Made by a program: the position numbers and the translations under genes. The notes below the pieces were generated by a model, which was given only the letters and a program-made list of their open reading frames with translations, was not told the origin of the DNA and searched no databases. 22,950 nt of DNA from Escherichia coli (lineage in GTDB: Bacteria > Pseudomonadota > Gammaproteobacteria > Enterobacterales > Enterobacteriaceae): NCBI RefSeq assembly GCF_003334355.1, contig NZ_QOWP01000046.1; one strand, 5' to 3'. Of this stretch, positions 3,683-3,997 are shown piece after piece (positions within the stretch are counted from its first letter, which is position 1; every line of letters begins with the position of its first letter).

Positions 3683-3997
3683 ATGACTCAAAAATATGAA
3701 CTGATTGTGAAAGGGATCCGCAATTTTGAGAATAAAGTTACGGTAACTTTAGCGTTACGGGACAAAGAACGCTTTGACGGTGAAATTTTTGACCTGGACA
3801 TCTCGCTGGACCATGTTGAAGGTGCCGCGCTGGAGTTTTATGAGGCAGCAGCCAGAAGGAGCATCAGACAGGTCTTCCTGGATGTTGCTGCCGGGTTATG
3901 TGAAGGGGACGAGCTGTTGCCAGAAACGCGACCCTGTTCAGAGGCTCGGTATACCATAAAAATTAACAGTTCAGATAACTCGATTACGGGTTGTTAG
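3683..3997 (+). CDS. ydfR: Hypothetical protein between holin and endolysin (YdfR-like, Qin prophage synteny)
   Basis: 104-aa ORF tightly packed after the holin stop, with a GGAGAG SD 7 nt upstream. Position and length match ydfR of the Qin lysis cassette by synteny; function unknown. Symbol is by synteny only. Confidence 0.6.
   Translation: MTQKYELIVKGIRNFENKVTVTLALRDKERFDGEIFDLDISLDHVEGAALEFYEAAARRSIRQVFLDVAAGLCEGDELLPETRPCSEARYTIKINSSDNSITGC

Follow-up and report, generated by a model that had tools for sequence, protein, structure and literature searches.

Why should a small acidic protein be encoded between the pinholin and the SAR endolysin of a lambdoid lysis cassette, and what might it do for the phage? 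The question is raised by an uninterrupted open reading frame (ATG start, 104 aa, TAG stop) at positions 3683-3997, plus strand, of the window, by which we mean the whole stretch of Escherichia coli DNA analysed here (22,950 nucleotides of contig NZ_QOWP01000046.1; Table 1). The original prediction had described an acidic 104-aa ORF with a good ribosome-binding site, lying between the holin gene S and the endolysin gene R of a Qin-like cassette, whereas phage-21-type cassettes run S-R-Rz. All of this holds: the coordinates, the isoelectric point and the duplex energy agree, gene order puts the locus at the Qin prophage position, and the phages cdtI and SfI have the S-R-Rz arrangement with no extra gene. 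The ORF had also been called uncharacterized; the gene already has a name, ydfR, and a family, DUF1327 (PF07041).

The match of the ORF product to Pfam DUF1327 has an E value of 9.8e-39 and covers model positions 1-90 of 93, and that to PHROG 2735 an E value of 4e-54. RefSeq E. coli chromosomes with identical DNA label the ORF 'YdfR family protein' and annotate it in the order essD, 'YdfR family protein', rrrQ, rzpQ. Its place in the Qin lysis cassette is also the late-operon position, in lambdoid (pro)phages of Enterobacteriaceae, that goes with membership of DUF1327. Homologues number in the hundreds; with the ORF alone as megablast query, ydfR is found in 4255 of 5426 complete E. coli genomes (~78%), at up to 8 places in a single genome. 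The ORF is a known and already annotated member of the YdfR/DUF1327 family, not a new gene, and with so ordinary an annotated gene in the window the novelty is limited and the interest modest.

Table 1. Features of the lysis cassette in the window, with the reverse-strand ORF families that occupy the ydfR-R interval of related loci
Feature	Positions	Strand	Basis
Candidate intrinsic-terminator-like hairpin and T-run, 5' of the holin gene	3341..3372	+	Consensus scan only; late-operon tR'-type position
P21-type holin S, 71 aa	3463..3678	+	Pfam PF04971 'Bacteriophage P21 holin S', E 4e-34; PHROG holin families; essD in identical RefSeq loci
Shine-Dalgarno (SD) GGGGAGAG within the 3' end of S	3668..3675	+	Anti-SD duplex -8.6 kcal/mol
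ydfR codons 1-73, conserved DUF1327 core	3683..3901	+	Pfam E 9.8e-39; alignments; AlphaFold2 pLDDT 82-96
ydfR codons 74-104 and stop, probably disordered tail	3902..3997	+	pLDDT <50 for residues 77-104; family tail variants
Relic, 3' end of a convergent 79-aa ORF (phrog_21218)	3998..4036	-	Pairwise alignment of the window with L029
AU-rich R leader ATCCTGATAAATATCC, conserved, without Shine-Dalgarno	4037..4052	+	Anti-SD duplex -2.9 kcal/mol; in all ydfR-containing variants
SAR-type lysozyme R, 177 aa, rrrQ type	4053..4586	+	PHROG endolysin; PDB relatives; rrrQ annotation
Rz-like i-spanin, 165 aa	4583..5080	+	PHROG 312 Rz-like spanin; K-12 rzpQ/rzoQ annotation
Rz1/RzoQ-like lipoprotein ORF, embedded, +1 frame	within 4758-5030	+	ORF list; K-12 rzpQ/rzoQ annotation
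Reverse ORF families in the ydfR-R interval of relatives: 90 aa, phrog_2411; 79 aa, phrog_21218; 86 aa, phrog_2572; 104 aa, phrog_1853; 233 aa in Stx1_499		-	

The genes of the cassette are tightly spaced. Only 4 nt separate the S stop codon from the ydfR ATG, which lies 7 nt after GGGGAGAG, and 55 nt lie between the end of ydfR and the start of R. A second in-frame start of S, at 3472, would yield a 68-aa form (the MKSM dual-start motif, as in S21-type pinholins). The lysozyme has an N-terminal hydrophobic segment rich in Gly and Ala, and its solved relatives are the phage-21/RrrD lysozymes 3HDE, 3HDF and 4ZPU (E about 1e-16). The Qin position follows from the gene order relBE-hokD-rem-ydfU ... 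essD-ydfR-rrrQ-rzpQ-cspI; on the downstream side, the Qin locus of identical RefSeq DNA continues with cspI, ynfQ, gnsB, ydfO and nohA. As it does in K-12 Qin, a cspI/cspG-like cold-shock gene (5442-5654) stands directly 3' of the lysis genes; its 5' UTR and coding region are matched by the Rfam cspA thermoregulator (114 bits, 5297-5681). The ydfR cluster has been reported to be up-regulated under cold stress (PMC13232886).

The region upstream of the cassette is less orderly. Cargo fills positions 476-3272, between an interrupted Q region and the lysis genes: a Blc-type outer-membrane lipocalin (476-1000, minus strand), a 319-aa ORF (1193-2152) whose C-terminal half is PRK10167-like, and an AraC-family regulator resembling YdeO/GadX (2550-3272; phrog_1450), with a terminator-like hairpin at 3232-3251 after the cargo genes. 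In the identical RefSeq locus the antiterminator gene Q is cut by IS3, and the Q region of identical loci is broken up by IS elements and cargo genes, the host prophage being defective. Since Q is truncated by IS3, normal late activation of the window cassette is doubtful.

As to the protein itself, its sequence (pI 4.75, net charge -6.4) points to a small acidic cytoplasmic protein with no membrane or export feature. No transmembrane segment or signal peptide is predicted (the highest 19-residue Kyte-Doolittle mean is 0.75), Pfam and PHROG give no holin-family match, and neither the sequence nor these two databases reveal a signal sequence, lipobox, SAR segment or muralytic domain. An AlphaFold2 model, built from a 28-sequence alignment, predicts three strands (beta1, 5-14; beta2, 18-27; beta3, 34-43) and a helix (alpha1, 50-77) with pLDDT 82-96, followed by residues 77-104 with pLDDT <50. 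The alignments likewise show a conserved core of ~72 residues and then alternative, unrelated tails: PCSEARYTIKINSSDNSITGC in the window, PIILEAQNVWITYKGKLPGRITGSLKTPP... in a second type and KLSEKVESYLQHQY... in K-12. The family motif EGAxLEFYEAxA stands at the start of the helix; the window instance, EGAALEFYEAAA (residues 46-57), fits the wider form (E/D)G-x-x-L-x-(F/Y)-Y-E-x-(A/E)-A. Neither Y53 nor E54 varies over the 28 sequences, at identities down to 24%. Family members are 103, 104, 114 or 116 aa long, along with long forms of 161-287 aa in which the DUF1327 core is fused with phrog_36381-like and other modules. In the Stx1a phage Stx1_499 (L004 3501-4742), the annotated 'long YdfR' of 263 aa overlaps, in antisense, an unannotated 233-aa reverse ORF (4041-4742) that has no Pfam or PHROG match; this long form is probably over-extended.

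Homology search and structure prediction were among the checks proposed in the original prediction. Homology search identified DUF1327; the predicted fold has no informative structural relative. Foldseek against AFDB50 returned DUF1327 proteins only, and neither a PDB sequence search nor NCBIfam gave a match. The model has no structural likeness to Dip, RraA or RapZ, and shows no significant structural similarity to a dsRBD (alpha-beta-beta-beta-alpha). The PADLOC defence HMMs match neither the window YdfR nor the 176- and 263-aa forms.

The distribution of the gene is instructive. It is carried by non-defective, plaque-forming phages, namely mEp460 (gp55), BP-4795 (ORF47), H-19B and many Stx1a- and Stx2c-converting phages, and in the records of these that we inspected it always lies between S and R. 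An IMG/VR sample supplied 80 loci with close relatives, 79 of them with both S and ydfR on the contig; in every one of the 79 the S-ydfR spacer is 4 nt, and in 78 the ydfR frame is intact, a single frameshift being found (L073). The decay in relatives that the original prediction had considered is therefore absent. A few ydfR variants are read-through forms (P0022, P0137). Faithful as it is to this slot, the gene is optional among cassettes with an S21-type holin: by tblastn, 438 phage records have such a holin and about 101 have YdfR. R directly follows S in Min27, cdtI and SfI, which lack ydfR, and in Min27 (933W-like) the 177-aa R begins exactly at the start position of ydfR, with the same GGGGAGAG before it and 4 nt between it and S.

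The family also extends beyond lysis cassettes. Searched with a profile, 1.84 billion representative proteins yield a small DUF1327 family of 106 representatives, of which the distant members (among them P0195, P0183, P0189, P0213 and P0166) are stand-alone domains of 72-94 aa. Wherever the context of these distant genes could be read, it was a lambda-like tail-tip operon, as in Salmonella phage 29485 (30600-30860); the loci are L013, L015, L016, L017, L019, L022 and L103, the last being phage 29485. The gene there shares the late-gene strand and begins about 28 nt downstream of the gene before it, at one of three sites: Phage_min_tail (gpM)/Phage_tail_L, L/K (NlpC/P60) or I/J. In 6 of the 7 readable loci it is followed by a small convergent ORF, of differing families.

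Similar convergent ORFs are a feature of the lysis-cassette loci. Among the IMG/VR loci the distance from ydfR to R is 55, 63, 321, 343, 370 or 452 nt, and each of the longer intervals holds one small reverse-strand ORF (Table 1) whose 3' end abuts or overlaps the ydfR stop codon. No homology is detectable among these reverse ORFs. Counting lysis and tail contexts together, the reverse ORF that follows DUF1327 in this two-gene unit belongs to one of at least eight families, all unrelated, and such variable partners beside a constant ydfR mark the S-R junction as an accessory-gene hot spot. The window has lost its partner: read in the reverse frame, positions 3998-4036 still encode the C-terminal end of the 79-aa ORF, ...MLPMKDTGKPTAKS*, and in pairwise alignment ~315 nt are missing relative to L029, where that ORF is intact. 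To judge from this alignment, the 55-nt spacer is a deletion derivative and a relic of the convergent ORF. The same combination of absent convergent ORF and intact ydfR is found in 49 of the 79 IMG/VR loci. Retention of ydfR after the loss of this cargo argues against an obligate two-gene system, with the proviso that these loci are too close to one another for decay to have set in yet.

Selection on ydfR is real, if comparatively relaxed. For deeply diverged pairs (Nei-Gojobori, first 70 codons) dN/dS is 0.22-0.29, as against 0.05-0.12 for S and 0.03-0.14 for R in the same pairs; dN itself is about 0.45 for the ydfR domain versus 0.13-0.15 for S and 0.05 for R. Pooled over 85 loci, pN/pS is 0.3-0.55 for ydfR, 0.05-0.18 for S and 0.10-0.18 for R. 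The gene is under purifying selection 3-5 times weaker than that on S and R. One pair behaves otherwise: between BP-4795 (L003) and Stx1_499 (L004), codons 1-70 of ydfR differ by 14 non-synonymous and 2 synonymous changes (omega about 2), while the S genes differ by 0 and 7, respectively, which suggests diversifying selection, the sample being small. Moreover, ydfR alleles reassort freely with those of S. Between the window and 640R1, dS is 0.02 in ydfR and 1.7 in S, and BP-4795 compared with 640R1 gives the opposite pattern.

These numbers dispose of the idea that the ORF is a chance frame or a decaying remnant in a defective prophage. The defective state of the host prophage, the frameshift in L073 and the read-through variants P0022 and P0137 might be cited in its favor. 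It is, however, hardly credible in the face of the intact frame in 78 of 79 relatives and in plaque-forming phages, the purifying selection and the strong match to the family HMM; intactness, dN/dS and pN/pS together effectively refute it.

What, then, might the protein do? Our literature search for functional work on YdfR found no study beyond a single recent one (PMC13232886, RNA Biol 2026). [quoted passage not shown] Full-length YdfR gave a two-hybrid signal with RNase E(1-597) only, and Strep-YdfR co-eluted RNase E(1-598)-FLAG, in an eluate rich in nucleic acid that resisted DNase; YdfR, in the authors' view, may be RNA-binding, although a contaminant might instead have carried the RNA (PMC13232886). 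Overexpression was non-toxic and changed few transcripts, and ydfR expression was absent in standard culture. What the study reports for RNase E is binding rather than an effect on its activity (PMC13232886). Over residues 1-70, the window protein is about 84% identical to K-12 YdfR.

The reading that we prefer, and to which we would give roughly an even chance, is that ydfR is an optional gene of lambdoid phages, expressed late, whose cytoplasmic product plays an accessory part and acts through binding to a host factor. It would be a moron-like gene, translated from the phage late transcript along with the lysis genes, whose 72-residue beta-beta-beta-alpha domain most likely binds a host cytoplasmic factor. 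Experiments point to one partner only, RNase E through its catalytic N-terminal half (and RNase G), perhaps with RNA as well, and the protein might act by modulating RNA processing or decay late in infection. That RNase E binding is its biological function, and that the window allele shares it, we infer. The position in the lysis cassette would then reflect a permissive insertion hot spot, with a possible action in cis on the translation of R. Several observations sit poorly with this proposal. The RNase E link comes from one study, by overexpression and two-hybrid assay, in which the full-length protein bound one RNase E construct only, few transcripts changed and a contaminant is possible (PMC13232886). 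The invariant S-R slot, together with the stop/start overlap of K-12, has the look expected of a lysis accessory, and the relaxed constraint and variable tail would equally fit a role in an arms race.

The slot between S and R leads to the role that the original prediction had proposed from position alone, in lysis timing or as an endolysin accessory. On this reading, YdfR would be a cytoplasmic lysis-timing regulator of pinholin/SAR-endolysin cassettes, an acidic protein that could associate with the C-terminal tail of the S21-type holin, which is basic and cytoplasmic, or could restrain the SAR endolysin before its export. This is unlikely in our estimation, although not without its attractions. 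None of the E. coli-type loci examined departs from the S-R slot (79/79 in IMG/VR, each with the 4-nt spacer, and all inspected phage records). In phages of E. coli, Shigella and Salmonella ydfR always lies there, and within the E. coli branch its position is invariant. In K-12 the ydfR stop codon overlaps the rrrQ start (ATGA), implying translational coupling, and the charges of the two proposed partners, acidic YdfR and basic holin tail, are complementary. Finally, the Keio deletion of ydfR was scored envelope-leaky in a CPRG screen (PMC3879167 supplement), a phenotype that speaks for a lysis role and against the binding of a host factor; yet it could equally be polar, with the kan cassette driving the rrrQ SAR lysozyme. 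Against a lysis regulator stands the fact that the gene is missing from about three-quarters of the phages with an S21-type holin, whose cassettes are otherwise equivalent. Homologues with the same domain reside in tail operons, alleles recombine freely with respect to S, the domain evolves far faster than S or R, and YdfR resembles none of the PHROG families classed under 'lysis'. Taken with the lack of a membrane or export feature and with the RNase E study, the evidence leans against the proposed lysis role; ydfR does not look like a component of the holin-endolysin-spanin machinery, and a dedicated role in lysis is not favored.

The raised rate of amino acid replacement invites another interpretation, namely that YdfR is an accessory in an arms race, serving in anti-defence or else belonging to a prophage-borne unit of defence or exclusion, and functionally tied to the variable convergent ORF. 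The ydfR pN/pS 3-5 times above that of the flanking genes, the excess of replacements between BP-4795 and Stx1_499 (14 to 2 in 70 codons), the variable C-terminal tail and the recurrence of the two-gene unit with at least eight unrelated reverse families would all suit such a role. It is nevertheless improbable: PADLOC has no match for YdfR or its long forms, and the reverse ORFs are mutually non-homologous and are missing from the window and from 49 of 79 close relatives in which ydfR is intact. More improbable again is that the ORF serves mainly as a spacer in cis, shifting R away from the strong S-end SD and thereby tuning the ratio of holin to endolysin, with the protein itself dispensable. 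By filling the slot behind the S-end SD, ydfR does leave R with an SD-less leader, ...CCTGATAAATATCC (-2.9 kcal/mol in ydfR-containing cassettes), that is conserved across variants, and in ydfR-less Min27 it is R that takes over the start of ydfR behind GGGGAGAG. A pure spacer, however, would not hold an open frame in 78 of 79 loci with a dN/dS of 0.2-0.3, nor keep the YE motif unchanged among homologues of only about 25% identity, and the tail-operon homologues have no such role. As a side effect of an accessory gene that binds a host factor, the SD-less leader should still lower the translation of R relative to S, which could matter for a SAR endolysin able to leak from the membrane by itself.

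A broader proposal would make the DUF1327 proteins phage late-operon factors for host takeover and, at the same time, would have the gene mark a recombination hot spot, with the unit inserted at several lambdoid late-operon sites and swapping its cargo. We regard this as doubtful. Whatever the outcome, genes of the ydfR type occur in about four-fifths of complete E. coli genomes, often in multiple copies, and in Shiga-toxin phages ydfR adjoins the genes that release toxin and virions. Should YdfR act as a modulator of RNase E or of the timing of lysis, it would influence phage burst and Stx release; if ydfR only marks a cargo hot spot, it would be a useful landmark for prophage accessory genes.

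The closest comparisons are with the relatives of the window gene. K-12 YdfR (b1555, UniProt P76160, Qin) has the same order as the window, essQ-ydfR-rrrQ-rzpQ-cspI, and the same 4-nt spacer after S, but its tail from about residue 70, KLSEKVESYLQHQYSFKIENPANKHERPHHKYL, is unrelated to the PCSEARYTIKINSSDNSITGC of the window, and its stop codon overlaps the start of rrrQ (L006 6055-6062) where the window has its 55-nt spacer. Since a different tail-encoding segment takes the place of the spacer in K-12, the ydfR-R junction has been remodelled differently among Qin-type prophages. The gp55 of mEp460 is 97% identical to the window protein, with the same 104-aa form and the same slot. The Stx-phage alleles have 53-57% identity and other tails or fused modules (114-287 aa), and are often followed by a convergent ORF, which the window has lost. 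More distant are the tail-operon DUF1327 proteins (Salmonella phage 29485 ARB10885; P0195, P0213, P0189), which at 24-36% identity share the 72-residue domain and its xYYExEA motif but have no C-terminal tail, and whose genes stand at the M/L, L/K and I/J sites rather than between holin and endolysin.

Small soluble proteins encoded beside holin or endolysin genes can tune lysis timing, as do T4 RIII and P1 LydB. YdfR has no sequence or family match to the T4 RIII antiholin cofactor or to LydB, nor do Pfam, PHROGs and NCBIfam show homology to any characterised soluble lysis regulator, and it differs from the two in being optional and in having non-lysis paralogues. With the RNase E modulators phiKZ Dip, RraA/RraB and RapZ it shares reported RNase E binding; for RapZ, as for YdfR, the site is the catalytic N-terminal domain of the enzyme (PMC13232886). 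A further comparison is with the lambda morons bor and lom, which are likewise optional cargo in or beside late operons, including the lysis cassette (in 640R1, Bor is convergent and follows Rz). Whereas bor and lom are expressed in the lysogen, each from a promoter of its own, ydfR is co-oriented with the late operon, uses the Shine-Dalgarno at the end of S and is presumably expressed late.
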